DNA from: Eledone cirrhosa
Lineage: Eukaryota
DNA: 64,000 nt
NCBI GenBank assembly: GCA_964016885.1
Contig: OZ024746.1
Span: 46,562,001 to 46,626,000, forward strand
Reading direction: 5' to 3'
This document shows positions 4,419 to 60,129 of this stretch, piece by piece (within the stretch, counting starts at the first letter, position 1; each line of letters begins with the position of its first letter). A program made the position numbers and the translations under genes. The notes below the pieces were generated by a model. The model was given only the letters and a program-made list of their open reading frames with translations, searched no databases and was not told the origin of the DNA.

Positions 4419-4938
4419 ATATTTATTAAAATAACAAATTAAAGTTTAAGCAAAGAATCGCTGCTTTCACCCTTAACGGGATCTTCTGAAACTAACAAAG
4501 TCAATCTGTAAACGCAGAACTGGATATTTCAAAAAACGTTGCTATCGGAGGAAGACAGGCAGACTATACTTTGGTTCGTGGTAACGTTCGCTGGCAAAGA
4601 ACGTGGTTTTGTCTTTGCGCGTAATTGTTTTTCACCGCTCCTATTAATGACGTTTATTCGTTTTTTCCCGTTCTTTGCCAGCGAACGTTACCACGAACCA
4701 AAATATAGTCTTCCTGTCTTCCTCCGGTTGCAACGTTTTTTGAAATATCCAGTTCTGCGTTTACAGATTGACTTTGTTAGTTTCAGAAGATCCCGTTAAG
4801 GGTGAAAGCAGCGATTCTTTGCTTAAACTTTAATCTGTTATTTTAATAAATATTTGCTCTACGGTTCTTATATATTTGATATATATTTTCCTTATCGAGC
4901 CCTCTTTGGATTTTAGTCTTCAATTTTATTATTATTAC
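4419..4938 (+). mobile_element. Fold-back PLE terminal insertion, family F2, HHR on both strands (4433-4509 minus, 4763-4838 plus)
   Basis: Inverted arms about 4419-4600 and 4668-4855 plus an unpaired tail to 4938; same sequence follows the GIY-YIG ORF at 33062-34403. Confidence 0.85.
4763..4838 (+). ncRNA. Type I hammerhead variant (F2)
   Basis: ACAGATTGA(bulge)AGTTT-CAGAAGA-T CCC gttaa GGG T-GAAA-GCA..TGC-TT-AAACT TTAATCTGT; extended bulged stem I; other copies 33169-33244 and 60227-60302 minus. Confidence 0.65.
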
Positions 4939-5115
4939 TATAGTATATATATATATATAGTATATATATATATATAGTATATATATATATATAGTATATA
5001 TATATATATAGTATATATATAGTATATATATATATAGTATATATATATATAGTATATATATATATCGTATATATATATATATATATATACTATATGTATA
5101 TATATATATATATAC

Positions 5116-5193
<78 letters not shown>

Positions 5194-13645: not shown

Positions 13646-13727
<82 letters not shown>
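11794..13727. repeat. Interrupted (TA)n tract; one of many (e.g. 4940-6318, 8777-9925, 14920-16090, 35470-36670, 62550-63324)
   Basis: TA runs punctuated by single C or G. Confidence 0.97.
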
Positions 13728-13730
<3 letters not shown>

Positions 13731-14916
13731 TTTATTAAAATAACAGATTAAACAATGAATCCTTAACGGGGTCTTCTGAAACTAACAAAGTCAATCTGTA
13801 AACGCAGAACTGGATATTTCAAAAAACGTTGCAACTGGAGGAAGAGAGGAAGATGATACTTTGGTTCGTGGTAACATTCGCTGGCAAAGAACGGGAAAAA
13901 ACGAATAAAACGTCATTAATAGGAGCGGTGAAAAACAATTACGCGCAAAGACAGAACCACGTTTATGGTATAAAAGAGGTCGTAGACTAATGTTCTCTTA
14001 GGTGGTGCATAGAGACGTTCTCTAGCGATGAACGAAAAACGAAGGATAATAAGTCATATGTGGAACGTGGAGAACAATAGCACGCAAAGACAAAACCGCG
14101 TAAATGGTATAGCAGAAGTCGTAGACTAAAATTCTAACTAGGAGACCAAATGAATCTCCGCTACAGAGTTAAGAACAACGTAAATAAATACAATACAGAA
14201 GTAATAGAAATAAATAAATACATACACTCAAACAAATACGTACATACACAAGCATGCGCAAAACCTTACCATAGGTATACAAAACCACGCACATATAAAT
14301 ATGTGTGTGTGTGTATGCTTGTGTACAAATAAATAAATAATTATATAAACGTATATAAGTAAATAAATACGTATATAACAAGCGCACAAACATACCTACA
14401 TATAAATATACGATGTTCGGAGACGTAAGTCAACTAAAACAAGAAGTACACATATACACACACCCGCCATATGTACGAACCTGCATACTCACGCAGACGC
14501 AAAACTCCCGTATACACATAGCCAAACCCTAAATACCAGAATATATAAAAATTATACGCCATAACAATCAAATATACGTACGAGAATGTATACATACCTT
14601 CGCAAAACATACGGGTAATGATACTTATCTATGCAAATAAGTAAAGGAATAAACAAAACATATACTTAGCTCCCACATCAAGACGTAAAATATCCACGTA
14701 TACATCGTACTAAATATCCACGTATACATCGTACTATCCGTTAGGGTATAGCGTGGGGCTGTAATACAGTAAAGTTTTGTGCAATTTATGTTTACAAGCC
14801 GAAATTGCCTCAGATTTTTTGTTTAAGATGCGGTCTGTGGCCTAGACAATTTCCAGGGCCTCAGCGGCGCAGAGGTCACATGGTCTTTTATTTCCGTTAT
14901 ACGATCTAGCCCTTAT

Positions 14917-19721: not shown

Positions 19722-20374
19722 ACACATATATATATATTTCGTTTCTGAATTTGTTTAGCAAGATTCTTTATCTGAAATCGTGTGTTGAAACCGATATTGT
19801 TATACTTTGGGAGGGTCATGTTGCCAATAAGAAACACACGCACCAGATGCTTTCACTTCAATTTATTATAATAAATTTATAATAAATTTATAAATTTATA
19901 AATTTCTGGTTGGTTGGTTCCACAACCAGATAGTTGTTTATATATAGTCATAGTTCTTTCGTCACACACTCTGTGACCTCTTCAGTGACTGGGGATTCCT
20001 TTCTTTGTTTCTGTGCCTCTCCTTTGTTCTGTCCTACGCCATTTTGTTTCTGTGTGTGTGTTGTGTGCTCAGTCTGCGCATGCGCCACATCCGGGTGTCT
20101 GTGTGTGTTTATGTTCATTTATTTATTTGTTTATTTACATGTTACTGGTTGGTTGTTTGTTCTATGTGTGTGTGTGTTTTCATTTTGTCCTTAATTGTAA
20201 GTTTTGATGTTGCTGTTCCACTCATATTTTCTATTTAATTTTGGTTGTAATTCTTTTATGTTTATTGCCTCTGTAATTTGTCTAAACATTGCGTCTTTTC
20301 TGTGTGTAGATTCTATTTTTATTTCTATGTTCTCTAATTTACCCTTGTGTTCTATTTTAGCATGTTGGTAGAGT

Positions 20375-21941
20375 TCCGTGGGATTGATACCAGTGAGCTG
20401 GGACTCCTAATTAAGCTTACCTATAGTAATAATTACCTAGACACATATGACCTTAGCAACCTGTGCCCTACAAGACCAGCAAGAGGCAGACCACCTACCA
20501 TTACCTCAATGGCCAAGAAAACCCACACAGATAGATGGAACGGGTGGACCAGAGCCATACGGACACCCGAAAACCACGATGAACTGAAGAAAATGATTGC
20601 ACATGGGTAGGGGCCAGCATAAAACTAACCCTTAAGGAACATATGTTCAAATTTAATGTAAAAACATATGCCCAAGAGGAAGGAGCAGCCATTGGTGTTA
20701 GCATTGCAGGCGACATAGCTAACTTATTCATGGTATGGTGGGACAGTAGACTTAAACTTAAACTTAAAGAACAATTAGAAGACCCCTTAACCCTGATAAT
20801 GTACTCCCGCTACGTTGATGATATAAACATCGTAGTTAAGACACCCCCACTAGAGAACAGTCAGGAACTAGAGAAAAACACAATGGAAAGCATCCAGCAA
20901 ATAGCAAACTCCATCCACCAGAGCATTAGAGTTACTATAGACTACCCAAGTAAACACCCCAACCATCGATTCCCTGTACTAGACACAGAGCTCTGGTTAG
21001 ATACCATTAACAACAAAAACAGATCCTCCATTCCCATTATGCCAAACCCATGACTTCCAAACATCTGATCCACCGAAACTCGGCCGTTTCGGACCATACC
21101 AAAATCAACATACTTATTGCGGATTTGGTACGGGTGATGAGAAATGTGTCCCGCATGTGCAACCTCGAAGAACTAGAGAGACACATACAACACTTCATCC
21201 AGCGTATGCAGTTCTCTGGCTACAATCAGAGAGATGAAATCAGAGTGTATAGAGGAGCCAGAACTAAATGGGAAAAAATGGTAAATAATGACATAAATGG
21301 GACCTTCCCCTTTTATAGGAGCACATTTTGGAATAGAATAGAAAGAACTAGGAACAAGGCTAATAGAATAAACTCATGGTATGATAGCAATAAATACCAG
21401 AGTGTAATGTTCATCGATACAACCCCTAGAGGTGAATTAGCTTACAAATTTAGAAGGGCCCTAAATAAACATAAACTCAATATTAAGATAGTACAAAGAC
21501 CAGGTACCTCCGTAAAAACACTTATTAGCAAGACATACCCTTTTCAAAGACCCTCATGTATAGATAGGAAATGTATAACCTGTAAAATAAGGCCCCCATA
21601 TTAACTGTAAAACTAAAAATGTAGTGTATAGCATAAGATGTACTGAAGGACAATGTAGAGACAAAAATATAGTGTACATAGGTGAGACAGCTCGTAGTGT
21701 AGGGGAACGGATAAATGAACACTGGCGAGACCTTCAAGATAGTAAAGAATCATCTGTACTCTACCAACATGCTAAAATAGAACACAAGGGTAAATTAGAG
21801 AACATAGAAATAAAAATAGAATCTACACACAGAAAAGACGCAATGTTTAGACAAATTACAGAGGCAATAAACATAAAAGAATTACAACCAAAATTAAATA
21901 GAAAATATGAGTGGAACAGTAACATCACAACTTACAATTAA
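20375..21941 (+). pseudogene. PLE RT and GIY-YIG, 5'-truncated and frameshifted
   Basis: QEEGAAIG..ANLFMVWWD, RYVDDI, FPVLD, CIDRKCITC, VYSIRC..YIGETARSVGERINEH, EAINI..LN. Confidence 0.92.
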
Positions 21942-22141
21942 GGACAAAATGAAAACACACACATACATAGAACAAATAACCAACCAGTAACATGTAAATA
22001 AACAAATAAATAAATGAACATAAACACACACAGACACCCGGATGTGGCGCATGCGCAGACTGAGCACACAACACACACACAGAAACAAAATGGCGTAGAA
22101 CAGAACAAAGGAGAGGCACAGAAACAAAGAAAGGAATCCCC

Positions 22142-22186
22142 AGTCACTGAAGAGGTCACAGAGTGTGTGACGAAAGAACTATGACT
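22142..22186 (+). ncRNA. Minimal hammerhead (F6); inverse copy 19946-19990
   Basis: AGTCA-CTGAAGA-G-GTCACA gagtg TGTGAC-GAAA-GAAC-TA-TGACT. Confidence 0.8.
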
Positions 22187-22323
22187 ATATATAAACAACT
22201 ATCTGGTTTCGGAACCAACCAACCAATCAGAAATTTATAAATTTATGAATTTATTATAATAAATTGAAGTGAAAGCATCTGGTGCGTGTGTTTCTTATTG
22301 GCAACATGACCCTCCCAAAGTAT

Positions 22324-22355
<32 letters not shown>

Positions 22356-22360
<5 letters not shown>

Positions 22361-23147
22361 GAAGAGAGAAGAAACATTTAGATATAATTAGTAATAAAAT
22401 GTATCATACCTAAACTGCTCCTAGATTCCTCGACTACGTAGTTTCGTGGCATAAACAAAAACAATACATCATAAAGATATAGATTCCTTGCGAGGTCTGC
22501 CGACTTATCAAGTGGATACCTCATTTTACTAGCCTCAAGAACGCGTCTACACGACGTGAGAAAGAATCCCAAAAGGCGGAGAGGGGAGATAGTCACGCGA
22601 TATAACGGTCGAGAAAACGAGCTAAGCCTCTTATAACCCCGAAGAAAATACCACGGAGGCGGAGTGGGTATTTATATCGAAGCCGTAGAAGAGGTGGTGA
22701 AGGAGGGGAGAAGTATGAGTAATGGCAGCTTTCCAGCAGTCACCACACTTCAAAGATTACTCGACCAGAGGGAGTTATGAACAATATATTTAGAAACACA
22801 CAGATACATGCGGACACACATATACATGAATGCATCCACACCCAACCGTGAGTTAATGGTGCCAATCTTACCGATGTTGCTCAATGAATGACTGGGACAG
22901 GCCAATCCGGTTGAACTAGACTGAACCAGTATCAGAGTTAAAAATACATTATGAAGAGAGAAGACGCGTTCTTGAGGCTAGTAAAATTAGGTATCCTCTT
23001 GATAAGTCGGCAGACCTCGCAAGGACTCTATATCTTTATGATGTATTGTTTTTGTTTATGCCACGAAACTACGTAGTCGAGGAATCTAGGAGCAGTTTAG
23101 GTATGATACATTTTATTACTAATTAGATCTAAATGTTTCTTCTCTCT
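22356..23147 (-). mobile_element. Non-coding 592 nt HHR unit (F7) plus a 185 bp inverted arm
   Basis: ATTATGAAGAGAGAAGA recurs 592 nt apart; 22962-23147 is the reverse complement of about 22363-22548. Confidence 0.75.
22994..23083 (+). ncRNA. Hammerhead, U3-A8 variant with long loop II (F7); inverse copy 22427-22516
   Basis: TCCTC-TTGATAA-GT(C)GGCA..~45 nt..TGCCAC-GAAA-CTACGTAG-TC-GAGGA. Confidence 0.8.
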
Positions 23148-23160
23148 ATACATATATATA

Positions 23161-23216
<56 letters not shown>

Positions 23217-23362
23217 TATATATATATATATATACTATATATATACTATATATATATACTATATATATATACTATATATATATACTATATATATATACTA
23301 TATATATATATACTATATATATATATACTATATATATATATACTATATATATATATATATAC

Positions 23363-23400
<38 letters not shown>

Positions 23401-23592
23401 ATATATAGTATATATATATATATATATACTATATATATACTATATATATATATATACTATATATATATATACTATATATATATATACTATATATATATAT
23501 ACTATATATATATATATACTATATATATATATATACTATATATATATATATACTATTTATATATATACTATTTATATATATACTATATATAT

Positions 23593-23625
<33 letters not shown>

Positions 23626-23634
23626 TATTTATAT

Positions 23635-23711
<77 letters not shown>

Positions 23712-23729
23712 TATATATATATACATATA

Positions 23730-24169
23730 ATATAAGATCAAAAGATGGTTAAAGGAGTTCCATATATTTTATTATGCGCATTTCAAAAACAAACATCATC
23801 AAGCAATAATATTTGTGTTTTCATCAGATAAAACAGGAGAACATGATATGAAGGCTAAAAAACACTTGTTGATAGTGCAGTTTTAAATCAACATATCAAC
23901 AAATCAACATCAGATATGTTGATTTAAAACTGCACTATCAACAAGTATTTTTTAGCCTTCATATCATGTTCTCCTGTTTTATCTGATGAAAACACAAATA
24001 TTATTGCTTGATGATGTTTGTTTTTGAAATGCGCATAATAAAATATATGGAACTCCTTTAACCATCTTTTGATCTTATATTATACATACTCCAGTCCCAC
24101 AAACTGTAGAGTGCTTCTTATCCGATATCTGCATTGCTTTATTGTACTACAATAAAACTCACCTCCTAC
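23730..24169 (+). mobile_element. Fold-back PLE-type insertion, family F8, HHR on both strands (23765-23835 minus, 23975-24045 plus)
   Basis: TGTTTTAT-CTGATGA-long stem II-GAAA-TGCGCA-TA-ATAAAATA; arms ~165 bp and tail ~85 bp. Confidence 0.82.
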
Positions 24170-24686: not shown

Positions 24687-27600
24687 TTATCTCCAGCCTG
24701 TATAGGTTGGCCACCGGTGTAAGAGGGAGTTTGTTGCTGCTGCCCTTAGGTTTCTATCGTGTCTTGCTGTGGGCTCATCCGGAATCCTGGATAACAAGGT
24801 GTCGAGATGTTTCTTAAAGACATCCACCTCCACGTCATGCAAGTCTGTCAGATGCCTCGGCAGCCTGTTGAAGAGTTGAGGGCCCTTGAATCCCAGGCTA
24901 TTGCAATACCTGCTCCTTATTCTAGATGTGGAAGACGGGACCTTTGGCACCACACAGTGACGTCCTGTTCGAGGGTTGGTCCAGCTCCCAATGCCAAAGT
25001 TTGATGCTAGTCCCTCCAGGATTTTCCACATGTAGATCACTGCGTATCTCTCCCGTCTTCGCTCCAAGGAGTAGAGGTTCAGTTCCTTTAGCCTCTCCCA
25101 GTAGCTTGTCTCCCTCATCTTGGCAATCCTCTTGGTGTAGCTTCGCTGGATTGCCTCAAGCTCCGTGGTTAGTTTGACACTATGGGGTGACCACAACTGG
25201 GAGCAGTAGTCCAGGCGGCTTAGGACAAAAGTCCTCCACAGTGTCAACATGGTGTCTCGATCTCTTGTCCGGAAAGTCCTCAAGATCCAGCCAGCGAGTC
25301 GTCTGCACGTTGTCGCCACGTTCATGATGTGTGAAGAAAAAGATGCATCATCGCTCATGTCTATGCCCAAGTCTCGTATCGATTTTGACACAGGGATATC
25401 GGTCCCTCCTGGTCCTGTCTAGCTGTGTTCCACTATATTTGTGTTTGCAGGTTTGATTTGTAGGGCTTGGAATTTGCCAGCATTAAACTGCATGTTGTTT
25501 TCTTCCGCCCATCTGTATATGGCATCCAGATCCTGATGTAAAAGGGCAGCGTCAGCCGGGTTTTTGATTGTCTGTGCTACCCTAGTGTCATCAGCATAGC
25601 TAGTGAGGGATGTTGTTGCATGCACCACAGAGGGCATGTCCGAGAGAGCCACCAAAAACAGTAGTGGTCCCAGGACTGTCCCCTGGGAACCCCACTTGTT
25701 ATCGGTGTTTCCCTCGAGAGGGCCCCATTTGCTGCGACTGCCTGGCTTCTGTCTCTTAGGAAGCCATGCAGCCACTCACCTACTTTTCCAGTTATGCCGA
25801 GTCCGTGTAGTTTGTGACATATCATTCCGTGGTCGACCTTGTCAAAGGCCTTCGCAAAGTCAAGATATATCACGTCCACATGTGAGCTGTCTAGTAGTTG
25901 TCTCAGTACCCAGTCGTAGTGATGTAGCAGCTGTGTAAGGCAGCTTCTTCCTGGGCGGAAGCCATGTTGCGTGCTAGTCAGGCGGTCATTTTCTTCGAGG
26001 AAAGTGATTAGTTTCTTTCTGACGACTCACTCCATGACCTTACTGATATGCGATGTCAGGGAGACTGGCCTATAGTTCCTGGCCTCCGCTCTACTACCTC
26101 CTTTATGGATAGGGCATATTGTGCCTTCTTTCAGCTCCCTGGGTAGTACACCGCTAGCCAAGGGGCTTCTGAAGAGCATCTTCAGTGGAGTTGCTAAGGC
26201 CCGCTTACATATTTTTAAGAGAACTGCTGGGAATCCATCAGGTCCAGCAGCCGAGTCTGTTCTAATTTCATCAATGGCGTACACCACATCCTCCTCCGTT
26301 ATGTCTATGTGGTTGATGGTTGCCATTTCTTGATGTAGTGTTGTGGCATCAAAGAACTCCTCTGGCTTCGTTATTTGCATGTGCCTCAGTGGACATGTGA
26401 AGACACTTTTGTACTGTTCGTTCAGTATTTCACATATCTCTTGGGAATTTTCGGTTAATGAACCGTCCGTGTGGAAGAGTGGCCCAATCTTGCAGTGTAC
26501 TGAGGCAGTTTCTTTTGCAAATTTAAAGAAGGCCTTAGGGTTTGTTTTAATGTTTTCTATGGCCCTGTTCTCTTTCTTTGCCCTCTCATTCTCATGTGAA
26601 AGTTTGAGTGCAATCTCGGTGTCAAGTAGTGCACGTTTCAAATAGGATTCCTTCTTGTTTTTGTTTTGTTGACTATTCAACTGGTTTGAGAGTTTAGTTC
26701 TACGTCTCATAAAGATTTTCCTATCTCTGGGAATAAGATTTTTGTGTCTGTTTGCCTCTTTCTCCGGGACACACTTTTTGCATATGGTGTGTATCGTTGT
26801 CATGAAGTGTTGAAATTGTGTGTAAGTGTCTTGTGTGGCGGTGTTTTCACACCATGTTTGCTTCCGGATTTCACTCTTAATCTTTTTCCAGTTAGCCTTG
26901 TAGAAGTTAAGGTTGGATAGCGTCCCGGAGCTTCTTGGTGGTTTTGTCTCTGTTGGTTCTCTTGGACCACATATCATTAGCTCTACTAAGTTATGATCCG
27001 AGAGAATTGTTGGTGTCACCTTTACATCGTTGTTTGTAAAACAGAGGTCCAGGACATTTTCGCCTCTTGTTGGGAGGATTATTGCTTGCTCCATGAACAG
27101 CCTGTGTGTGAGGGCCAGCAGGGATTCCGTCTGTCTGTTCTATTGACGTCATTCCAGGGAGGAGGTGGCCCTCAGGCCATTTGACCTTTGGTAGGTTGAA
27201 GTCTCCCAGCAGTAGGATGTTGAGACCCTGGTCCAGTTTGTCAAGGAACTCTTCTATCCTACTTAGGCTATCCTCAAATTTACCCTTATGACTGGGGGCA
27301 TCGGGCGGCCGATATGTGACACATATTACTGTCTGTAGTTGCTTCATATGTATTATCAGTGTGTCACAGACTGAGTTTGAATGTGTCAACAGTACAATTG
27401 GTGTGACATCTTCACGGATATACAGAGCAACCCCACCATGAGTTCTCTCCTTCCTGTCCGAACGAAATACAGTATATTTCGGTATATGTATTTCTGCATC
27501 TGCTATACTCCTTGTCAGGTGCGTTTCGGTTAGTGCCATGCATAGTGCTTGATTTCTTATGGCTAAGTCTCCCAGGTAGGAAATTTTACTCATGTTACTG

Positions 27601-27704
27601 AGTTTCACCAGGCCCCTGACATTCAGCAGCAGCACTGGTGTGACTTTTGGGGTGCCAGTAATGGCTGTCGGTATGACACCTGGTCTGGTGTCAGCGGCGG
27701 CCAC
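24687..27704 (-). pseudogene. LINE ORF2 (APE endonuclease and RT), several frameshifts
   Basis: LNVRGL, ALTETHL, GGVALY, LLGDFNLP, SDHNLV, NYRPVSLTS, YLDFAKAFDKV, QGTVLGPLLF, YADD, SRLDYCSQLWSP. Confidence 0.93.
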
Positions 27705-28560
27705 TCTGGGTCCCTTAACTGCGGTAGTCTCGAGTGCTGGTGTAGATGACCCTGGCTCTGGAGACGATGCAGCCAGGTCAGCTGTCCCACAATCTTCTCT
27801 GCCATCACTAACATTTTTTTCTGATCTGCTGCTGCCATCTGTATCTCGTCGGCATGTGCGTGCCTTCTTCTTGTTGGTGCGGCACGCGCGACATCAGCAT
27901 ACTTCTGGAGCGGCTTATTTCGGCTTTGGCTGGGGCATGTTGCGCGAGTATGATGGGCATAGTTCGTTTGAGACCTAGGGTGGGCGAATCTGCATCCCAT
28001 CCCTGTCTCTCCATGCCAGCATGTCCCGTTCTTGAAAAACTTGCACATTACTTGGTGTTTTTTGCTCCCAGTGTCTCAGTGCTTTCTGTTCTTCCTTTGA
28101 ACAGTTGTCCACTGGTCCCTCTGCGCTTGGTTCTCCTTCGGAAGGTGATTTCGCTTTTCACCTTTGCCCTTAGCTTGTTGGTTGCCCGGTCTGCCCTCCC
28201 TGCCTGTGGCGGAGGGTATATCATTTTCTTTCAGGTCCGTGCTTGTGCTCTCCTCCTTTTCTTTTTCCTCTTCCTTTTCCCTCTCCTTCTCATCATCCCT
28301 CCCTTCGGTTTTCTCCTCCCTGAGGACACGGCTTAGCATCGCCATATGTGGCGCTATGAGGACATACGCCTTCTCAATTTCTTTTCTCTTTCTCTCTATC
28401 TGTGCCAGTGTCCTCAGAAACCCATGGCTCTTCAGGTTCTCCGGCATCTTTTTCTTGGTGGAGACCCATCAGCCATGGTCCACCCCTTGATCAAAACCGC
28501 TAGTTCCATCTTTGACCAGTTTCGTTGACTCCTAATTTCACCTTTTTCCTGCATGCAGTC
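27623..28560 (-). pseudogene. LINE ORF1 remnant with acidic/basic coiled region and CCCH zinc finger
   Basis: CKFFKNGTCWHGETGMGCRFAHP (C-x7-C-x8-C-x3-H) immediately upstream of ORF2. Confidence 0.7.
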
Positions 28561-32969: not shown

Positions 32970-33061
32970 TATATATATATACTATATATATATATATACT
33001 ATATATATATACTATATATATATATATACTATATATATATATATATATATATATACACTAT

Positions 33062-34403
33062 AGTAATAGTAATAATAATAAAATTGAAGACTAAAATCCA
33101 AAGAGGGCTCGATAAGGAAAATATATATCAAATATATAAGAACCGTAGAGCAAATATTTATTAAAATAACAGATTAAAGTTTAAGCAAAGAATCGCTGCT
33201 TTCACCCTTAACGGGATCTTCTGAAACTAACAAAGTCAATCTGTAAACGCAGAACCGGATATTTCAAAAAACGTTGCAACCGGAGGAAGACAGGAATACG
33301 ATACTTGGTTCGTGGAAACGTTCGCTGGCTAAGAACGGGAAAAAAGAATAATACGTCATTAATAGGAGCGGTGAAAAGCAATTACGCGCAAAGACAGAAC
33401 CACGTTTATGGTATAATAGAGGTCGTAGACTAATGTTCTCTTATGTGGTGCATAGAGACGTTCTCTGGCACTGAACGAAAAAACGAAGATAATAAGTCAT
33501 ATGTGGAGCGTGGAGAACAATAGCACGCAAAGACAAAACCGCGTAAATGGTATAGCAGAAGTTGTAGACTAAAATTCTAACTAGGAGACCAAATGAATCT
33601 CCGCTACAGAGTTAAGAACAAAGTAAATAAATACAATACAGAAGTAATAGAAACAAATAAATACATACACGCAACAGATACGTACATACACAAGCATTCG
33701 CAAAACCTTACCATAGGTATACAAAACCACGCACATATAAATATGTGTGTGTGTGTATGCTTGTGTACAAATAAATAAATAATTATATAAACGTATATAA
33801 GTAAATAAATACGTATATAACAAGCGCACACACATACCTACAAATAAATACACGAATGTTCGGAGACGTAAGTCAACTAAAACAAGAAGTACACAAATAC
33901 ACACACCCACCATACGTACGAACCTGCATACTCACGCAGACGCAAAACTCCCGTATACACATAGCCAAACCCTAAACACCAGAATATGTAAATTATACGC
34001 CATAACAGTCAAATATACGTACGAGAAGGTATACATACCTTCACAAAACATACGGGTAATATATACGTACCTAAGCAAATAATTAAAGGAATAAACAAAA
34101 CATATACTTAGCTCCCACATCAAGACGTAAAATATCCACGTATAGATCGTGCTATCCGTTAGGGTATAACGTGGGGCTGTAATACAGGAAAGTTTTGTGC
34201 AATTTATGTTTACAAGCCGAAATTGCCTCAGATTTTTTGTTTAAGATGTGGTCCCTGGCGTAGAGTATTTCCAGGGCCTCAGCGGCGCAGAGGTCACATG
34301 GTCTTTTATTTCCGTTATACGATCTAGCCCTAGCTAGGATCTCCCAGTGTAACTTATATTGGGTGTGGTTGTCTTTTAGACTCCAGATATAAGCTGAAAG
34401 TGA
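33062..34403 (-). mobile_element. PLE family F2 3' fragment (endonuclease C-terminus 34152-34403, 3' UTR, HHR, tail)
   Basis: TSLSAYIWSLK..WEIL..CDLCAAE..LNKKSE..CKHK. Confidence 0.9.
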
Positions 34404-38513: not shown

Positions 38514-41500
38514 TATGTCCTGGGTATGACATTAAACTACATCCAGTGGCAAGGCTCCAGTTCGGGAGTTCAGGAGTTGTGGGAAATGTGGAGTTACCCC
38601 TTAGTCGTCATAACTCCCAGGTCTGCCCTGGCCCGGGGTGGTAGTACCTGTTAGGGCTCCATTTATGGGTTAAATGACTACCTTATTCGAGTGGCGCCGG
38701 TAAGGTATTGTCAGCCATTTGAATAGAAATATGGAGAGTCGATCTAACAGCACTAGGGTTAGAGCCCCTAATTACACTGTCAAGGAGCAGCCTGGTCGTT
38801 ATGACTCTGCTGGCTTAGAGCCACATAGAGGGCCAGTGGATGATGGATCAGCTGTCTCTGAGACAAATATAAAGAATGCAGTTTTGTCCTGCAGAAGAGC
38901 TATCAAAATGGGCACTTTGAATGTGAGGACTATTCGGACGCTGGAGAAGAGAGAGGAGTTGGGACATCTGTTTGAGGAGAGTGGTATACAGATACTTGCG
39001 ATCCAAGAACACAGGATCCTACACTATGAGCCCGTGAGGAGTGTGATAATCGGGAAGTGGAACCAGCTCATCACTACATCGGCAGTGAAGAACACAAAAA
39101 ATGCTGCAGTAGGATGAGTGGGTTTTGTGTTCAGTGCAGGAACCAATCTGTTGGTGAAGGAAATAATGCCTATCTCCCCGTGAGTGTTAAGGGTGACCTT
39201 CAATGGAAACCCAAGACTGACAGTCATCTCAGCATATAGTCCAACCGAGGGGGACAGTGATGTGAGTGCGGAAGAGTCCCATGAGGAGGTGTGTAGAGCT
39301 GTCAACACCACTGAGGCACACAATATCCTGCTTGTTTTGCGGGACTTCAATGCACATCTGAGTAAGGAGGGCAGTGAAGATCCTTTCTGGTACTTCCATA
39401 ACAACACCAATCGAAATGGAAGACTACTGAGAGACACCCTGCTGGAGGCGAACTTGATGGCGACCAACCTAAGGTTTAGGAAGAATCTGGGGAAGATGTG
39501 GACCTACATCCCAGATGTGCACCTGTCCAAGTCCCAGATTGATTTCATTCTGGTGAGGAAAATGTGGCGGAATAGTGTTCTGAACACAGAACCATACCGT
39601 TATTTCAGTACACTGGGTAGTGACCACCGGCTTGTTATGAGTGAGGTCCGGGTGAGCTTAAGAAAGAGCAAGGCTCGGCCCCGGAGAGCAATCTATGACT
39701 GGGGATCTTTCAAGGAAGATGATAAGCTAGAGGAGAGGTTCACAGTGGAAGTGAGAAACAGGTTTAGTGCTCTGTTGGGAGAGTCAGAGGAGAGAGAGAT
39801 TGGATGGATTGAGGAGAGTGTGACGAGGCGGTACGGGCACTTCACCAATGCAATGGCGGAAGCAAGTGAAACCCTGGTCCCGAGGAAAAAGAACAAAGGG
39901 AAGCACGTCAGCTCTGCAAACCCAAAAGTGTGTGCAGCCAGAGAACACCTGAAGGCTGCTAAGGACCAATTCTATGCTGATCCTACGGAGGAGAGGATGG
40001 AGACTGTGGAGGTGATGAGGGAAGAACTCTGTACCGCTTACACTGAGGTCAGAGAGGAGGCACTGATAGAGAAGATCAGAAGTGCGGAGAGAGCGGTTGA
40101 CAGATTTGGATGTAAGGAGAACTGGATGATCATCAACGAGATCACAGGGAGGAAGAGGTGTTCGAGTCAGATCCAGGGAACGGGGCCCGAGGATAGGAAG
40201 AGGAAATGGCTAGAACATTTTAGGACCGTACTAGGAGAGCCACCCTCCAGAGCCCAGAGCACTGGGGAGATCAGGCGGCTGTTTGAGGAACTGGATGTTG
40301 AGACAGAGCCCTTCATGAGAGAGGAGCTTCAGAGAGCCAAGAAGAAGATCAAGGAGGGCAAGGCTCATGGAGAAGATGGGGTGGCATCAGAGGTGATGAA
40401 GAGGTGTGATTTTGATGATATCATCCTGGTGTTCTGTAACGGGCACTGGAGAAGGGAGTTGCCCCGAATCAGTGGAGGATCAGTAACATCGTCCCAGTGC
40501 CAAAGAAGGGAGATCTCTCTAACACCAACAACTACAGGGGGATCTCACGACGTCACTTGTGGCAAAGACCCTCAACAGGATGATTCTTAACAGGATCCAG
40601 CCTGAGATGGAGAAGAAGCTCAGGGACAACCAGAACGGCTTCAGAGAGGGTAGATCAACCACCAGTCACATCCTCATGCTGAGGAGGATATTAGAGGGAG
40701 CTAGAACAAAGTGCCTTCCTGCGGTCATGGTTTTCATTGACTTTAGGAAGGCCTTTGATTCTGTGGACCGTTACTGCCTGATGAAGATCTTACAGGCTTA
40801 TGGAATCACCAAGAAGATAGTGGACCTGATATCACTGCTCTACACCAACACCAAAGCCCAAGTCATTACACCTGATGGGATGACAGAGTTCTTTGAGATA
40901 CTGGCTGGAGTGTTCCAGGGAGATACATTGGCTCCCTACCTTTTTATCATCGTAGTTGACTATTGTATGCGCCTTGCACTGGAGAAACACCAGGACTCTG
41001 GCTTTACTGTAGCACCGGCTCAGAGCAGGAGAGTCAGAGCGAAAAAGGTATCGGATGCTGAATTTGCCGACGACATAGTTTTGGTGACAAATACAGTGAA
41101 GGAGGCAGAGGATTTGATGCGGGAGGTTGAAACTGTGTCGATGAGTCTGGGGCTGAGAATGAATGAGACTAAAACAAAATATCTGGTAGAGAATGTTGAG
41201 AAGCCAGAGGGGACCACTAATGTAGGCGGGAAGCCGCTAGAATTGGTTGAGGGCTTCCTGTATTTAGGAGCAAAGATTGGGAATACGGAAGATGATGTGG
41301 TTGAGAGGAAGAGCAAGGCCTGGGTGGCGTGCCACAGCTTGAGATCGGTGTGGAAGTCGGACCTTCGTAGAGACCTGAAAGTCCGCCTCTTTATTGCTGT
41401 AGTGGAGTCTGTACTGCTGTATGGGTCTGAGACTTGGACAGTGACCAAGAAACTCACTCAGATGGTGGATGGGTGCTACACGAGAATGTTGAGGATGGCT

Positions 41501-41821
41501 CTGAACATTAATCAGTATACACTGAGGATGAAAAATTCAGAGCTGTATGGGAGCATCCCAAAAGTCAGCTCAAAAGTGACACAGAGGAGACTGAGGTTAG
41601 CTGGACATGCTCACCGACATCCAGAGTTGACATTGCACTCAGTGCACCTTTGGGAGCCCCTACATGGACACACTAGAAGAGGAAGACCAATGTTAACGTA
41701 TGTTGATGCCCTAAGGACAGACACTGGTCTGTTGGAGACGCAGGACATTGCAGCGATTATGAGGGACAGAGACCGCTGGAGAGAACTCGTCCATGGATCT
41801 CGGGAATTTTACCCGCCTTAG
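38514..41821 (+). mobile_element. Near-full-length RTE-clade LINE
   Basis: ~230 bp 5' UTR and a single APE-RT ORF ending directly in (TA)n. Confidence 0.92.
38749..41821 (+). pseudogene. RTE ORF (APE endonuclease and RT) with two TGA stops (39115, 39181) and frameshifts near 40440 and 40545
   Basis: MGTLNVRT, AIQEHR, SAYSPT, DFNAH, SDHRLV, QNGFREGRST, FIDFRKAFDSV, QGDTLAPYLF, FADD, RRLRLAGH. Confidence 0.93.
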
Positions 41822-44039: not shown

Positions 44040-44580
44040 AGATTTTGAGTTTATGTTGGTTGTATACCAACACCTCAGTATGCAGGCTGGAGCACTCGAC
44101 GAAGTGCGCAGGTTGGTTTGGTTACTCCGGAGTAGTGTAAAATAAAGTTAAATAAAAGTCAAATGATTAAAATTTAGCTTCGTTTATTACTGCTATATAT
44201 ATTTCAGTGACAGCCATCTTTGGCTGTGACCTCTTCAGGCAGTTTGAATTAGTATGGTATAGACAAGTACATATGTTGTTTAGGTGTATGATATTGTCAA
44301 TACTCTGATATGCCCAGTTCCTTGCTGGGTTGTTAATTCACTGGGGAATGACTCACATATGACTCCAGTTCCCCAGTGAATTAACAACCCAGCAAGGAAC
44401 TGGGCATATCAGAGTATTGACAATATCATACACCTAAACAACATATGTACTTGTCTATACCATACTAATTCAAACTGCCTGAAGAGGTCACAGCCAAAGA
44501 TGGCTGTCACTGAAATATATATAGCAGTAATAAACGAAGCTAAATTTTAATCATTTGAATTTTATTTAACTTTATTTTAT
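44040..44580 (-). mobile_element. Fold-back insertion of family F12, HHR on both strands (44189-44243 minus, 44474-44528 plus)
   Basis: ACTGC-CTGAAGA-GGTcACAGCCA aaga TGGCTGTcACT-GAAA-TATATA-TA-GCAGT; ~210 bp arms. Confidence 0.87.
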
Positions 44581-44695
44581 ATATATAGTATATATATAGT
44601 ATATATATATATATATATAGTAAATATATATATATATAGTATATATATATATATATATATATAGTATATATATGTATAGTATATATATATATATA

Positions 44696-44729
<34 letters not shown>

Positions 44730-44788
44730 TATATATATATATATATTTATATATGTAGTATATATATATATAGTATATATATATATAG

Positions 44789-44819
<31 letters not shown>

Positions 44820-44844
44820 TTTATATATATATATATATATATAG

Positions 44845-44887
<43 letters not shown>

Positions 44888-46094
44888 TATATATATATAT
44901 ATATATAGTATATATATATATATATATAAAATATTAAAGAAATAATGAATAAACAATTCCTTATATTAAACAAAAAAAGTTCATTATTTAACGATCGTTT
45001 CTAGGGTATATATGTGTTATAATTGGTATGCATATTCAACAGATCTATGTACAAAATTATACAAAATTATACAAATTATCAAGATTAAATATACATACCT
45101 AACACATATATACGCCGTCTTCAGAAATAATGAAGTATATTTATTGATAATAACAACAATTCAAAATATCAGTTCAAAATTGACCAATGAAAACACAAAG
45201 GGTTAAAAGCAGTTCGGTGTGTGTATATATACATGTAAAATCCTTACACATATTTTACAATAATGTGTGTATAATTTGTATGCGCATACTAAAAAGATGG
45301 ATGCAAACACAAAATTTCAAGGTTAATATCTCTGTAAGCTTAATGCGCTGATAAGATGCGTATTGATACTTATGGAGTCAAGCATATAAATATATTTTTT
45401 CATACTCACACATATCAGTATAATCACACATACATGCGCGTATATGCATAAATATACACATAACCACGAACATACAAACACACACACTCCCCCACTCACA
45501 TTTATATATGTGGATATAAAATCATAAGCACATAGAAATTAAGTCACTCACATAAAACACTGGCACACACATTTCAAGATCAAGATACAGAAATTAGGTG
45601 GGAGGGGGGGGAAGGGTCAGTATTCAATTGTCTGAGCAGACTGCCTAATATAAATGTATCTATAAATTAAGAAAAATAAAAAATAAAAACAATAAAATAT
45701 AATAAATGTAATATAATGTACATACACATACAGATACACATACACATACATACATGTACGCGCACATAGAGATATTTACGCATACACACATACACACATA
45801 CATATACAGTCATACACACACATACACTTACACGATCATACACATACACATATAAAAAGATATATATATACACACTCACACGCGCAACACATACACACAT
45901 ACACATATATATAAAAAATAGATAATAAAGATATATATCCATATATATATATATACACACACACATATATATATATATATACGTATATATATATATATAC
46001 ATATATATACATATACATACACATACATCTAAATATACATACACATACATACACACATACATGTACATACATGTACATACATATACGCACCTCG

Positions 46095-46142
<48 letters not shown>

Positions 46143-46477
46143 TCACATAGACATAAAGATACATACACACACAACTTACATACACACGTATATATATATA
46201 TATATAGATGTACCTTCATACATAGAATTAGATATATAATCATACATACATATGCACCTACTTATACTCATATAAATAAATACATACGCTTCCATATATG
46301 TGTATATACATATAAAAAACAATACAACCTCACCAAACTCAGACATACAAATGAAAATAATAATAAAAAGGCATATGTATATACATACACACACGCATTA
46401 ATAGAGATATATATATATACACACACATACATACACATACATACATACATACACCCACATATATATACACATACATA

Positions 46478-46513
<36 letters not shown>

Positions 46514-47483
46514 CACACACACACATAGACTCATATATATATACACACATATATATATATATATATATAACCATATATATCCACACACTCATACCACCAT
46601 AAATACACATACAAACACCCACATGTATATATATATATATATATACCCATATACACACACGTATACATATATATATATATATATACATATATATACATAT
46701 ATACACACACATAAAAAACAGACATGCACATATATATATATATATATATTTCATTACTCCTATATATACACATATTATATATACATACACAACCTCACTT
46801 ATACACATATACACATAAGTTATATTACAATAATAATAAAGAATAATATACATATATATATATACATATACATATATATACATATATATATATACATACA
46901 TACATACACATACATACATACACATAAATATATACATACAGAATACACACATACGAATAAAGACATATATTCACACATAGACACCTATATATATATATCT
47001 ATATATATCTATATATATATATATACATATATATATACATATATATATATACACACATACACACACACACACACACACAGACACACATACACATTCACAT
47101 ATATATATATATATATATGTGTATGTGAGTGTGCGCACACACACATATATACACACTCACATACAAACACACACAAACACATACATATGCATACGTGCAC
47201 ACACACACACATATATCACATAGATACGAAGATAAACATATAAATAGAGAGACATACATATATATACACAACACATATACACATACATACATACACGCAT
47301 ATACATATACATACATATATACACATATATATATTCCTATATATACAAGCATACACATACATACACATATATACACATATATACACATATACATACAACA
47401 CATTCACATACACATACATATATAATACATATATATACATATATATACATACATATGTATGTACAATCATATATACACACACA

Positions 47484-49092
47484 ATTAATTGGTTTAAAAA
47501 TATTAGGTGTAAATCTTCTGCTTCTTTCCTACAATTTGATATAGATAATTACTATTCTTCTATATCACCCATACTCCTGAACAAAGCATTAATATTTGCT
47601 AAAAATAGATCTAATTTAACTTCGGATGACATTAACATTATTACACATGCTAGACTAACACTTATTGAATTTCAGAATGAATACTGGACCAGAAACACAT
47701 ACAGTAATCTTTTTGATATTACTATGGGTTCAAGCGATTCCGCCCAAATTACTGATCTTGTGGGCCTCTTTCTCCTTTTCAACATAAATGCCTCTTTTCC
47801 CCACCTCAAAGGTGGTTTATATCGTGATGACTGTCTTCTTCTTTCTAACAACCTTAGCCTTTCAGAAATCGAAAAAAACAAAAAACATATTAGAACTTTC
47901 CTTAAAGACTATTATAATCTTAATATTACTTTTGAAAAAACAAGTAAAGTAGTAAATTTCCTAGATATAACTTTAGATTTAGCTACGGGTATATACCAAC
48001 CTTACCATAAACCTAACCAAAACTTACATTACATACACTCACAATCTAATCACCCTAAATCTATCCTTAAAAACCTTGCATATAATATATCACTTAGAAT
48101 TTCTAACCTTTCTTCTAACCAAGATGTATTTGATAAAAATGCGACCTTTTATAATGAAGCTCTAGATAGAAGTGGCCACAAAAATAGATTAGAGTATATA
48201 CCTTCTACTAAAAATACTGAAAGCATACAGCATAATATTACCAACAAACACCAAATGAATAGTACACACCTAAATGCCACCCACAATATACCCCAAAATA
48301 CTAAATCTTCTAATATAAAGTATAGTAACCCTCAAAAAACTACTCATCATACAACTATAATAAATATTAATAATAAAACTCCTAATAAAAAAGATAAAAC
48401 ACCTAAATCTACAAATATAACTAAAAATAGTTGTGGTGAGATCATTAACATTAATCCTCCTAGTAAAAATCATGATACAACCTATAAAAATAATAAAAAT
48501 AATAAACAACATAGAAACCGTAATAGACGAGTTACTTGGTATAATGCTCCTTTTAATTTACAAGTTAAGGATATATAATGCATATAAATGTAAGAAAACC
48601 ATAAGTATACCACCAGTACATCAAATTAACAATAATATCTCCTCAAATACAGAATTAACGAAAGGATGTAACTGTAGAAACAAAACAAACTGCCCATTAA
48701 AAGGGAATTGTCTTGTTAACAACATAGTCTATAAATGTAATGTTAAAACTAAAGATTCTATTTGCTCATATATAGGAGCTACCTCTAACAATTTTAAGAC
48801 AAGGTTTAATACCCACAAACATAGTTTTAAAAATGCCGCACTGGCTAATACAACATCTCTAGCAGAAAAAATCAATAGTTATAAAAATAAGAATATAAAA
48901 TATGATTTGACCTGGAGTGTGCTCAAAAGAGCCACCCCTTATCAAAATAATAGAAAGGAATGTAGATTATGTTCCCAAGAACTATTTGAAATAATGAAGT
49001 CTAAGGATATCTTATTAAATAAACGACAGGAATTAATTATATCGTGTAATCATAAACTAAAAAAAACATTTAAATATTATAAACCTAATTAA
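47484..49092 (+). pseudogene. PLE RT and GIY-YIG, 5'-truncated at the arm junction, with an internal deletion/frameshift near 48575
   Basis: FLQFDIDNYY, MGSSDSAQITDLVG, GLYRDD, FLDITLDL, CNCRNKTNCPLKGNC, YIGAT, CRLC. Confidence 0.92.
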
Positions 49093-49669: not shown

Positions 49670-51359
49670 ATATGTATGTATATGTGTATGTGTATGTATA
49701 TGTATATGTATGCGTATTAATTTTGATTTCTATTTGCATATAATTATATTATGCTATTGATGAAATACAATATCTGCTTTATGTATTGTGTACCTAATTA
49801 ACATATACTAATTAACGTATACTATTGAAATGAATATATAATTTTTAATTTAGTTAACATATAATTTATATGCTACTACCGATGTAATACTTTATTTTAT
49901 TTTTATTTGGGTTTCTTTTCCCTATTACTAAATTCATCTCCTAATATTGATACCATAACGTTATTAACTTTTATTTAGTTATAATGTAATTAATAATCTA
50001 CTACTGTTTGACTTCAAAATTCTGCTTCAAATATTATAAACCTAACTAATTTACACCTTAGAAATCAATATGTTGACTATCTTTGGTTTAGTTAACATAT
50101 GATTAATGGTATACTTATTTATTTTGAGTTGCATAGATTTTGTATTTCCTAGCACTGAAAATATGTAAGAACATACATTGAATTAAGATACGGAAAATAT
50201 TATATGTTTCTTGAAACATATATTTACTTTGATCCCCTTCTCCAAACCCCCCCTTTCCCCCATACTATTATCATCTGTATTTGTAAGCGTCTATGTATGA
50301 ATATATATGTAGGTAGGTGTCTATATAGGTTTGGGTATTTATATCTAAATATAAAAATACATATATGAGCATGCAAATATGAATGTAAGATTGTGTGTGT
50401 ATATATGATTGTACATACATATGTATGTATATATATGTATATATATGTATTATATATGTATGTGTATGTGAATGTGTTGTATGTATATGTGTATATATGT
50501 GTATATATGTGTATGTATGTGTATGCTTGTATATATAGGAATATATATATGTGTATATATGTATGTATATGTATATGCGTGTATGTATGTATGTGTATAT
50601 GTGTTGTGTATATATATGTATGTCTCTCTATTTATATGTTTATCTTCGTATCTATGTGATATATGTGTGTGTGTGTGCACGTATGCATATGTATGTGTTT
50701 GTGTGTGTTTGTATGTGAGTGTGTATATATGTGTGTGTGCGCACACTCACATACACATATATATATATATATATATGTGAATGTGTATGTGTGTCTGTGT
50801 GTGTGTGTGTGTGTGTATGTGTGTATATATATATATGTATATATATATGTATATATATATATATAGATATATATATATATATATATATAGGTGTCTATGT
50901 GTGAATATATGTCTTTATTCGTATGTGTGTATTCTGTATGTATATATTTATGTGTATGTATGTATGTGTATGTATGTATGTATATATATATATGTATATA
51001 TATGTATATGTATATATATATATGTATATTATTCTTTATTATTATTGTAATATAACTTATGTGTATATGTGTATAAGTGAGGTTGTGTATGTATATATAA
51101 TATGTGTATATATAGGAGTAATGAAATATATATATATATATATATGTGCATGTCTGTTTTTTATGTGTGTGTATATATGTATATATATGTATATATATAT
51201 ATATATATGTATACGTGTGTGTATATGGGTATATATATATATATATATACATGTGGGTGTTTGTATGTGTATTTATGGTGGTATGAGTGTGTGGATATAT
51301 ATGGTTATATATATATATATATATATGTGTGTATATATATATGAGTCTATGTGTGTGTG

Positions 51360-51395
<36 letters not shown>

Positions 51396-51730
51396 TATGT
51401 ATGTGTATATATATGTGGGTGTATGTATGTATGTATGTGTATGTATGTGTGTGTATATATATATATCTCTATTAATGCGTGTGTGTATGTATATACATAT
51501 GCCTTTTTATTATTATTTTCATTTGTATGTCTGAGTTTGGTGAGGTTGTATTGTTTTTTATATGTATATACACATATATGGAAGCGTATGTATTTATTTA
51601 TATGAGTATAAGTAGGTGCATATGTATGTATGATTATATATCTAATTCTATGTATGAAGGTACATCTATATATATATATATATACGTGTGTATGTAAGTT
51701 GTGTGTGTATGTATCTTTATGTCTATGTGA

Positions 51731-51776
<46 letters not shown>

Positions 51777-52737
51777 CGAGGTGCGTATATGTATGTACAT
51801 GTATGTACATGTATGTGTGTATGTATGTGTATGTATATTTAGATGTATGTGTATGTATATGTATATATATGTATATATATATATATACGTATATATATAT
51901 ATATATGTGTGTGTGTATATATATATATATGGATATATATCTTTATTATCTATTTTTTATATATATGTGTATGTGTGTATGTGTTGCGCGTGTGAGTGTG
52001 TATATATATATCTTTTTATATGTGTATGTGTATGATCGTGTAAGTGTATGTGTGTGTATGACTGTATATGTATGTGTGTATGTGTGTATGCGTAAATATC
52101 TCTATGTGCGCGTACATGTATGTATGTGTATGTGTATCTGTATGTGTATGTACATTATATTACATTTATTATATTTTATTGTTTTTATTTTTTTATTTTT
52201 CTTAATTTATAGATACATTTATATTAGGCAGTCTGCTCAGACAATTGAATACTGACCCTTCCCCCCCCTCCCACCTAATTTCTGTATCTTGATCTTGAAA
52301 TGTGTGTGCCAGTGTTTTATGTGAGTGACTTAATTTCTATGTGCTTATGATTTTATATCCACATATATAAATGTGAGTGGGGGAGTGTGTGTGTTTGTAT
52401 GTTCGTGGTTATGTGTATATTTATGCATATACGCGCATGTATGTGTGATTATACTGATATGTGTGAGTATGAAAAAATATATTTATATGCTTGACTCCAT
52501 AAGTATCAATACGCATCTTATCAGCGCATTAAGCTTACAGAGATATTAACCTTGAAATTTTGTGTTTGCATCCATCTTTTTAGTATGCGCATACAAATTA
52601 TACACACATTATTGTAAAATATGTGTAAGGATTTTACATGTATATATACACACACCGAACTGCTTTTAACCCTTTGTGTTTTCATTGGTCAATTTTGAAC
52701 TGATATTTTGAATTGTTGTTATTATCAATAAATATAC

Positions 52738-52892
52738 TTCATTATTTCTGAAGACGGCGTATATATGTGTTAGGTATGTATATTTAATCTTGATAATTTG
52801 TATAATTTTGTATAATTTTGTACATAGATCTGTTGAATATGCATACCAATTATAACACATATATACCCTAGAAACGATCGTTAAATAATGAA
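52738..52892 (+). ncRNA. Hammerhead with ~113 nt stem II (F13); inverse copy 44980-45134
   Basis: TTCATTATTT-CTGAAGA-long hairpin-GAAA-CGATCG-TT-AAATAATGAA; 10 bp stem I. Confidence 0.8.
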
Positions 52893-53160
52893 CTTTTTTT
52901 GTTTAATATAAGGAATTGTTTATTCATTATTTCTTTAATATTTTATCTTGACTCTGTATACCGTTTATCTTTCACCGAAAGTGGATTTTCATTACATCTC
53001 TTCTTTCCATGATATCCGGAATACATTGAGTCCTTCATACGGATTGGACACTACCGTAAACTCTTGGTAGATTTATCTACATATATATATATATATATAT
53101 ATATACTATATATATATATATATATACTATATATATATATACTATATATATATATATATA

Positions 53161-53196
<36 letters not shown>

Positions 53197-53257
53197 TATA
53201 TATATATATATAGTATATATATATATTATATATATATATATATATTATATATATATA

Positions 53258-53303
<46 letters not shown>

Positions 53304-53460
53304 TATATATATATATACTATATATATATATATAAATATATATATATATAGTATATATATATATAGTATATATATATAGTATAATATATAGTATATATAT
53401 ATATAGTATATATATATATAGTATATATATATATAGTATAATATATAGTATATATATATA

Positions 53461-59629: not shown

Positions 59630-59662
<33 letters not shown>

Positions 59663-59663
<1 letters not shown>

Positions 59664-59941
59664 TATTTAGAAACACACAGATACATGCGGACACACACAT
59701 ATACATGAATGCATCCACATCCAACCGTGAGTTAATGGTGCCAACCTTACCGATGTTGCTCTATGAATGACTGGGACAGACTAATCCGGTTGAATTAGAC
59801 GGAACCAGTATCAGAGCTAAAAATACATTATGAAGAGAGAAGAAACATTTAGATATAATTAGTAATAAAATGTATCATAACTAAACTGCTCCTAGATTCC
59901 TCGACTACGTAGTTTCGTGGCATAAAAAAAACAATACATCA
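59663..59941 (-). repeat. Circularly permuted fragment of the F7 unit
   Basis: Matches 22785-22964, then continues without a break into 22372-22470. Confidence 0.85.

Positions 59942-60053: not shown

Positions 60054-60126
<73 letters not shown>

Positions 60127-60129
<3 letters not shown>

Follow-up and report, generated by a model that had tools for sequence, protein, structure and literature searches.

A retrozyme-like family of Eledone cirrhosa inserted into TA repeats in the manner of Penelope-like elements

Introduction

Within the window, i.e. the whole 64,000-nucleotide stretch of Eledone cirrhosa DNA analysed here, a 17-mer marks both ends of a unit that carries a hammerhead motif and lies next to a TA repeat. 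The question raised by this locus is what kind of element the unit is and, if it is mobile, by which enzyme and from which form of RNA it is copied into the genome. An earlier interpretation of the letters of the window (the sequence-only reading) had proposed a hammerhead retroelement that is non-autonomous, is flanked by (TA)n and has an inverted arm of the type made by Penelope-like elements (PLEs), and the genome-wide anatomy agrees with this. The repeat unit is a non-coding sequence of ~593 bases with thousands of genome copies within TA repeats and, judged by the features that can be tested in sequence, it is a metazoan non-LTR retrozyme. Retrozymes of this kind are already known; what is new is the evidence, consisting of a near-obligate A+B rule for paired arms and of A>G marks present throughout arrays.

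Results and Discussion

Anatomy of the unit in the window

The mapped features are given in Table 1, and element positions are numbered on the hammerhead strand, with 1 being the first base past the cut.

Table 1. Features of the unit family and of the neighbouring PLE in the window
Feature	Position	Strand	Remarks
(TA)n target tract, main arm 3' end	22330..22351	.	also borders short end of neighbouring PLE
Main arm, 1.03 laps (one lap + ~20 nt; lap = 592 nt here)	22352..22964	-	3' end = site A
Initiation site A	22352..22357	-	~80 nt downstream of predicted cut; short TA microhomology with target
Initiation site B	22780..22787	-	~242-246 nt downstream of cut; internal in window copy
Type I hammerhead (predicted)	22427..22516	-	core of U3-A8 type; stem II bulged and extended by a long hairpin; stem III palindromic
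Inverted second arm, 186 nt, 97.8% identical	22962..23147	+	self-BLAST; head-to-head, 3-nt overlap
(TA)n tract bordering inverted arm	23148..23730	.	
Second family insertion, ~280-nt 5'-truncated arm	59662..59941	-	site B through site A and cut site
Separate neighbouring PLE insertion	19737..22331	+	frameshifted RT part, GIY-YIG (E=3e-5), long-end inverted arm; short end at 22331, long end near 19737

The 17-mer was confirmed at 22356 and again at 22948, an offset of 592, but it is not the designed terminus for which it had been taken. Since the 3' ends of the family map to the fixed sites A and B (see below), these supposed ends are the 3' initiation site A met twice, recurring one lap on. 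Likewise, a unit length of 592 nt holds for the window copy but not for the family, in which monomers are mostly 591, 593 or 595 nt (591-596 nt for laps overall) and an older subfamily, ~84% identical, measures 596 nt. At its 5' end, the main arm breaks off ~60 nt past the point at which the preceding lap would be cut. Since the 3' end of the inverted arm stops ~11 nt short of site A, the window locus is one of the three A+A exceptions described below. Contigs from sequencing runs X1-X4 cover the unit and are uninformative on ends, strand and expression; two loose TA ends in them, at 22780 and 22784, lie within site B. Another loose end, from run X4, was rejected as single-copy and unrelated to the unit.

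The second insertion (Table 1), which contains only the 3' half of the hammerhead and has (TA)n on either side, had been read from 59663 onwards as a circular permutation. It does cross the end-to-start junction, but it represents an arm that starts at site B and is truncated at its 5' end rather than proof of a circle, and the argument for circularity built on it is weak because tandem multimers give the same pattern.

The absence of RT or endonuclease coding remnants was borne out: in 10 monomers, each taken as four joined laps, stop-free stretches did not exceed 87 codons on either strand, no circular ORF was detected, and tblastn of 8 PLE-type proteins gave a best E value of 0.16. The RT and GIY-YIG ORF expected of an autonomous EN+ PLE is absent from the unit, and the architecture at the mapped loci is one of tandem laps without LTR pairs, which form part of the LTR/PBS/PPT layout of plant retrozymes.

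The hammerhead motif

The U3-A8 hammerhead with palindromic stem III reported earlier was located on the minus strand, with the core UUGAUAA at 22511-22505, GAAA at 22445-22442, the stem III palindrome CTACGTAG at 22441-22434 and the predicted cut between 22432 and 22431. A change at 22513, private to the main-arm copy of the window, disrupts one stem I pair; the hammerhead of the inverted arm is intact (core 22999-23005, predicted cut between 23078 and 23079). Descriptor and alignment give one type I motif per unit, and the descriptor matches one strand of the unit only. In the window it yielded 16 matches, compared with a mean of 0.03 over 30 shuffles. Rfam identified no hammerhead in the window at gathering level or at E values up to 10, the matches up to E 10 being weak ones to miRNA, snoRNA and sRNA families. 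The U3-A8 core is a known variant of PLE hammerheads (PMC4209133).

In an alignment of 17 copies, hand-chosen to span the subfamilies, the core is unchanged in all 17 and 95.8% of cells are paired. One pair of stem I is C-G in 7 copies, U-A in 6 and U-G in 3, and the stem II extension varies chiefly by A-U/G-U swaps. The pair count was equalled in 198 of 500 shuffles of this alignment, and support from covariation is moderate because it comes from a single compensatory pair among related sequences. The core is retained across subfamilies ~17% apart. Compared with shuffles, the fold of the whole monomer gave z values of -3.3 and -5.4; taken alone, the 121-nt hammerhead shows no unusual stability (z -0.86), and its MFE structure differs from the full catalytic fold. 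The monomer fold is branched and ~62% paired. A viroid-like or HDV-like circular RNA was rejected, since the fold is branched instead of rod-like and the hammerhead is found on one polarity only. In the circular MFE structure the strand past the cut pairs elsewhere, which would be predicted to stop a circle from re-cutting. Self-cleavage is predicted, and it appears quite likely that the hammerhead works.

The family in the genome

The exact 14-nt hammerhead motif has 8,149 copies in the genome (G000, 3.0 Gb) against 7 for the control, and intact-core hammerheads number 6,573 against 11; all 100 of the intact-core matches listed are members of the unit family. Identity to the window unit is 97-98% in the best copies, which often lie in tandem, with up to ~13 laps at one locus, and copies are dispersed over many contigs. 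As the first 100 of the 8,149 motif matches (contig C1) represent 51 loci, there are, by rough extrapolation, ~4,000 insertions genome-wide, of which ~190 were examined. The 51-locus set was treated as unbiased and, after one low-complexity false arm was dropped, contains 85 arms; the long-array sets were chosen by likeness to multi-lap queries, so that their lengths and 5' ends are biased. At the 51 loci, as at 112 further young loci and 26 loci of the older subfamily, the arms consist of laps of the unit and stop either in (TA)n or at an inversion junction. No sampled copy has an ORF inside the unit, so the longer copies seen contain no PLE frame, and the window is not alone in its permuted copy, permuted and tandem copies being abundant. 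The family is young and present in high copy number.

Two fixed start sites and the pairing of arms

The 3' ends of arms occur at two fixed sites, A and B, ~163 nt apart and fused to (TA)n. In the 51 loci, 41 of the 85 arms end at A, 37 at B and 7 elsewhere, i.e. 78/85 at A or B, with B being the fixed 3' end in about half of the arms. The repeat (TA)n adjoins 161 of 164 young A/B ends, and the start sites have 2-6 nt in common with the TA target. The 5' ends, in contrast to the fixed 3' ends, are scattered, and only one of the 85 falls within 5 nt of the cut.

All 30 inverted adjacent pairs in the 51 loci are head-to-head. Twenty-five of them combine A with B (24 independent pairs, one being a duplicate), none is A+A or B+B, and 5 involve another end. 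The 112 further young loci contain 59 head-to-head pairs (47 A+B, 3 A+A, 9 with another end), and A+B was found in 12 of the 19 such pairs at the 26 loci of the older subfamily; pooled, A+B accounts for 83 of 86 classifiable head-to-head pairs. Tail-to-tail pairs were seen twice in the 112 young loci and once in the 26 older ones. Arm junctions mostly overlap by 1-6 nt and are mostly non-palindromic, with a palindrome within 13 nt in 7/30. Fold-back self-priming was rejected as the chief source of inverted arms, since most junctions lack a palindrome.

The insertion features of PLEs, namely 5' truncation, a head-to-head arm and a tail on one end, are all found in the unit family. A one-end tail, inverted 5'-truncated arms and microsatellite targets are described as hallmarks of PLEs (PMC8557442, PMC3846280), and the tail pattern as well as the cutting and extension of two strands have been described for them (PMC8557442, PMC3846280, PMC11167929); the anole PLE protein is reported to cut and extend both strands and to use two internal start sites (PMC11167929). 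We consider mobilisation in trans by a PLE-type enzyme highly probable. The near-obligate A+B rule puts numbers on the PLE pattern of a tail on one end. In the literature searched, largely the main texts of open-access articles, we found no earlier paper with such a tally or with an analysis of array-wide A>G variants.

Laps, variants and the form of the template

Most arms continue across the cut site, and the 10 nt that follow it are free of indels at all 102 cut junctions examined. From these clean junctions and the single 5' end (1/85) close to the cut, it follows that the template was circular or an uncut multimer. In the biased sample, 20 of 186 5' ends lie 1-25 nt downstream of the cut, compared with ~8 if uniform, a hint that some templates were cut and linear. 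Laps diverge by 0.16% within arrays and by 1.6% between arrays (113 laps, 32 arrays).

Among 153 insertions, 54 private variants were present in every lap, 18 of them common to both arms, and 44 were present in some but not all laps. A>G changes, read on the hammerhead strand, make up 15 of the 54 array-wide variants but only 18 of 386 single-lap private variants. A stricter set was formed from array-wide variants that occur in both arms or lie in the region covered twice by the shortest pre-duplication insertion. It comprises 33 duplication-proof variants in 26 of 140 multi-covered insertions, of which 12, in 8 insertions, are A>G (p=2e-7 against 18/386); without locus L209 the count is 9/30 (p=3e-5). 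The strand test on array-wide variants is modest (A>G to T>C 15:10, p=0.037). Compared with its nearest relatives, L209 has seven A>G changes, each in every covering lap. These sites are mostly absent from other sampled insertions, and a 23-mer spanning three of them has exactly two occurrences in the genome (G000), both in L209. A 2-nt change in two of the three laps of L209 suggests one later duplication from 1.6 laps, and in our reading of the variant positions six of the seven A>G changes are within the twice-covered region.

Clusters of A>G changes are a recognised mark of ADAR editing, and ADAR has a preference for the neighbouring base. The base 5' of the changed A was G at 0/15 and U at 10/15 sites (p ~0.03-0.04) in a list made up of 13 of the 15 array-wide A>G variants, the other two being dropped, and of two non-private L209 sites; this result is weak, since the list was made by hand and the ADAR preference was assumed as background. 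The array-wide variants other than A>G may derive from unsampled parent loci. Read on the hammerhead strand, the single-lap variants from all sampled insertions show an excess of T>C relative to A>G (58 versus 18, p=0.012), possibly through RT errors opposite U. An antisense template, an idea found in PMC3846280, fits poorly because it is on the hammerhead strand that the excess reads as A>G.

The simplest reading of the array-wide marks is that one A-to-I-edited monomer was repeatedly copied, at the present insertion or one generation earlier, which requires a circle or a seamless jump. These marks are better support for circularity than the permuted copy of the window, and they suggest that at least some insertions were probably made from a circular template.

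The alternative that survives best is PLE-driven insertion from a template that is always an uncut linear multi-lap transcript, with laps homogenised or arrays lengthened by DNA-level duplication and gene conversion and the hammerhead being incidental. Some loci show what such a process would leave behind: in L149, L159 and L234, single-lap variants mirrored in both arms suggest that the template was a linear multimer, and duplication at the DNA level is suggested in L253, L199, L254 and L077 by variants that alternate or are found in neighbouring laps (the pattern of L206 is mixed). The anole PLE is reported to insert mainly from uncleaved RNA, with no need for hammerhead cleavage (PMC11167929), and local amplification is the model of a preprint on Xenopus retrozymes (10.64898/2026.07.22.740005), which reports 8 of 9 dimers without in vitro cleavage, against a cleavage-dependent model. 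Such a process would, however, have to account for the 33 duplication-proof variants with their 12 A>G changes and for the 386 single-lap variants that stay unconverted, and, because six of the seven L209 changes are twice covered, two laps would have had to be edited identically. An incidental hammerhead is also at odds with a core kept between the subfamilies. We regard this alternative as unlikely. The ~13-lap array L253 (G000:C3:51374000-51383200), with its alternating two-lap variant patterns, arose either from a dimer that was duplicated as DNA or from a circle of two monomers.

The one-monomer bottleneck would be produced equally by a linear monomer cut by the ribozyme if the RT ran off its 5' end and jumped to its own 3' end, thereby mimicking a circle, and the excess of 5' ends just past the cut in the biased sample would suit such a template. 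Non-LTR RT template jumps usually add or lose bases, which counts against this, as do the 102 cut junctions without indel and the near absence of 5' ends at the cut itself; a jump of this kind is thus improbable, more so than the uncut multimer.

Neighbouring PLEs and the search for a helper

The neighbouring PLE has its own C3-G8 minimal hammerhead at 22147, and again at 19985 on its inverted arm. Its family is young, with open frames of up to 995 codons elsewhere (L302-L305), and has two 3' ends ~60 nt apart, all 5 of 5 pairs combining the long with the short end. This is the same insertion pattern as that of the unit, but the family is a candidate helper only. No homology to the unit was detected in 29 loci of the neighbour family, in 30 loci with other U3-A8 hammerheads or elsewhere in the window; the genome contains 35,520 GIY-YIG candidates, and the comparison sampled a minority of PLE families.

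Two further families came from these searches. The first, a coding family that is PLE-like by eye and without Pfam match (L284-L294, L301), has a U3-A8 hammerhead, two 3' ends ~110 nt apart and, at L291 (G000:C1:120005400-120013700), frames of 725 + 171 codons; it has no sequence in common with the unit. By eye, the tail of L291 includes a possible GT-AG intron, and the short end of this family has a pyrimidine-rich likeness to site A. The second, a non-coding-looking U3-A8 family with a period of ~320 bp (L278, L295 and L300 in G000:C1), is flanked by (TA)n, with two 3' ends and with arms placed head-to-head. It accounts for most of the first 100 of 1,916 matches in the search for other U3-A8 hammerheads, and is likely another retrozyme.

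Several other elements were noted in the window. Hammerhead-like motifs at 23827, 23983, 35193, 37146, 42450, 43315, 44238, 44479, 54479, 56079, 56320, 57484 and 59095 (13 in all) represent at least three other families and include several inverted pairs. A TA-flanked element with internal repeats is present in four copies (4600-5121, 13727-14135, 33055-33546 and 60126-61214), the last of which runs into a PLE-like frame at 60516-61214. A 2.9-kb inverted duplication of 96% identity (44563-47485 / 50390-53344) around a PLE-like frame (47544-49092) is probably a large head-to-head insertion. Fragmented non-LTR retrotransposon-like frames occur at 24687-28075 and 38704-41821, which by eye we take to be CR1/L2-like on the minus and RTE-like on the plus strand.

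The unit could also be the pseudo-LTR of a still-active autonomous PLE, longer copies of which would have an ORF between repeats. Most PLE hallmarks are indeed present, and 24 of 57 Xenopus retrozyme families are reported to match known TEs, nearly all of them PLE ends (10.64898/2026.07.22.740005). With the arms of all three locus sets composed of laps of the unit, every listed intact-core match belonging to its family and no similarity to proteins, this possibility is very remote, though a rare full-length partner may exist, since ~190 of ~4,000 insertions were seen; an origin of the unit from a PLE end is likely. Least probable of all is a DNA-level repeat (satellite, MITE-like or fold-back) or a SINE-like partner of a LINE with a chance hammerhead, for which inverted arms, tandem arrays and the RTE/CR1-like frames seen by eye would speak, but which is largely refuted by the strict polarity of ends and the complementary use of two internal start sites, and runs counter to the dispersal over many contigs, the scarcity of palindromic junctions, the strand-biased A>G and the conserved ribozyme core.

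Proposed mechanism

As a full explanation, a retrozyme with a ~593 nt circle that is reverse transcribed in trans by a PLE-type enzyme into (TA)n has, in our estimate, a probability of about 0.68. The following steps are envisaged: 1) multi-lap loci would be transcribed and the RNA cut at successive hammerheads; 2) a cut monomer would be ligated into the circle by an RtcB-type activity, by analogy to PMC7229834; 3) some RNA molecules would be edited by ADAR; 4) a PLE RT/GIY-YIG protein acting in trans would cut both strands of a TA tract; 5) priming would take place at A for one DNA end and at B for the other, frequently on a single RNA molecule; 6) each cDNA would extend beyond the cut site by as much as several laps; and 7) the two cDNAs would join by microhomology. 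A share of insertions would likely come from uncleaved linear multimers, and long arrays would also lengthen by DNA-level duplication.

We lean slightly towards the more specific view that a ribozyme-made, edited circle serves a Penelope RT directly as template, with both DNA ends priming at two fixed sites; A-to-I edits would then appear in every lap and in both arms because one edited circle was read round several times. If true, this would amount to proof, from the genome, that retrotransposition in an animal can be templated by a circle, and the tail on one end of PLEs would stem from obligate two-site twin priming. Since the family is young, with ~4,000 insertions and sharp ends, the identity of the RT and the role of the circle as template are testable here, and the test for array-wide A>G is applicable to every assembled genome in which retrozymes occur.

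Comparison with known systems

The EN+ PLEs compared, i.e. Poseidon of Anolis (PMC11167929), the Adineta Penelopes (PMC3846280) and Naiad/Neptune (PMC8557442), are described as having in common with the unit 5' truncation, a head-to-head inverted arm, AT-rich or (TA)n targets, an optional one-end tail from two RT start sites and a hammerhead upstream of these sites. The unit differs in having no ORF and a tail of ~163 nt instead of 30-40; its start sites have the 2-6 nt homology to the TA target, whereas the anole element is reported to start without homology (PMC11167929). The MRC1-type elements of Chlamys (PMC8557442) are likewise non-autonomous, PLE-type and multicopy head-to-tail insertions but, as described there, mostly lack canonical hammerheads; they resemble their helpers at the 3' end, whereas no such helper of the unit was present among the sampled PLE loci. 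The hammerhead itself is closest in form to that described for the Schistosoma PLE Cercyon (PMC4209133), with a U3-A8 core, a stem I of 4-5 bp, an enlarged stem II and a palindromic stem III. Unlike the Cercyon motif, that of the unit is part of a non-coding tandem unit, its palindrome measuring 8 nt and its stem II carrying a long hairpin.

Metazoan non-LTR retrozymes (PMC7229834; 10.64898/2026.07.22.740005; a further source for comparison is PMC11722881) are described in the first two sources as non-coding tandem units with one type I hammerhead per lap, thousands of copies, a structured RNA (here predicted) and PLEs in the same genome, all of which apply to the unit. Its length is inside the 51-972 bp range of retrozymes in 10.64898/2026.07.22.740005, and exceeds the 170-400 nt of experimentally characterised circles. 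Unlike the retrozymes described in these sources, it has a U3-A8 core, a stem II insert of ~45 nt, dispersed insertions, two fixed start sites and inverted arms. The mobilisation of PLEs via circular RNA has been a hypothesis since 2014 (PMC4209133, PMC7229834), and reverse transcription from a circle has the same standing for metazoan retrozymes; the array-wide A>G variants of the present family bear on it from genome sequence alone.
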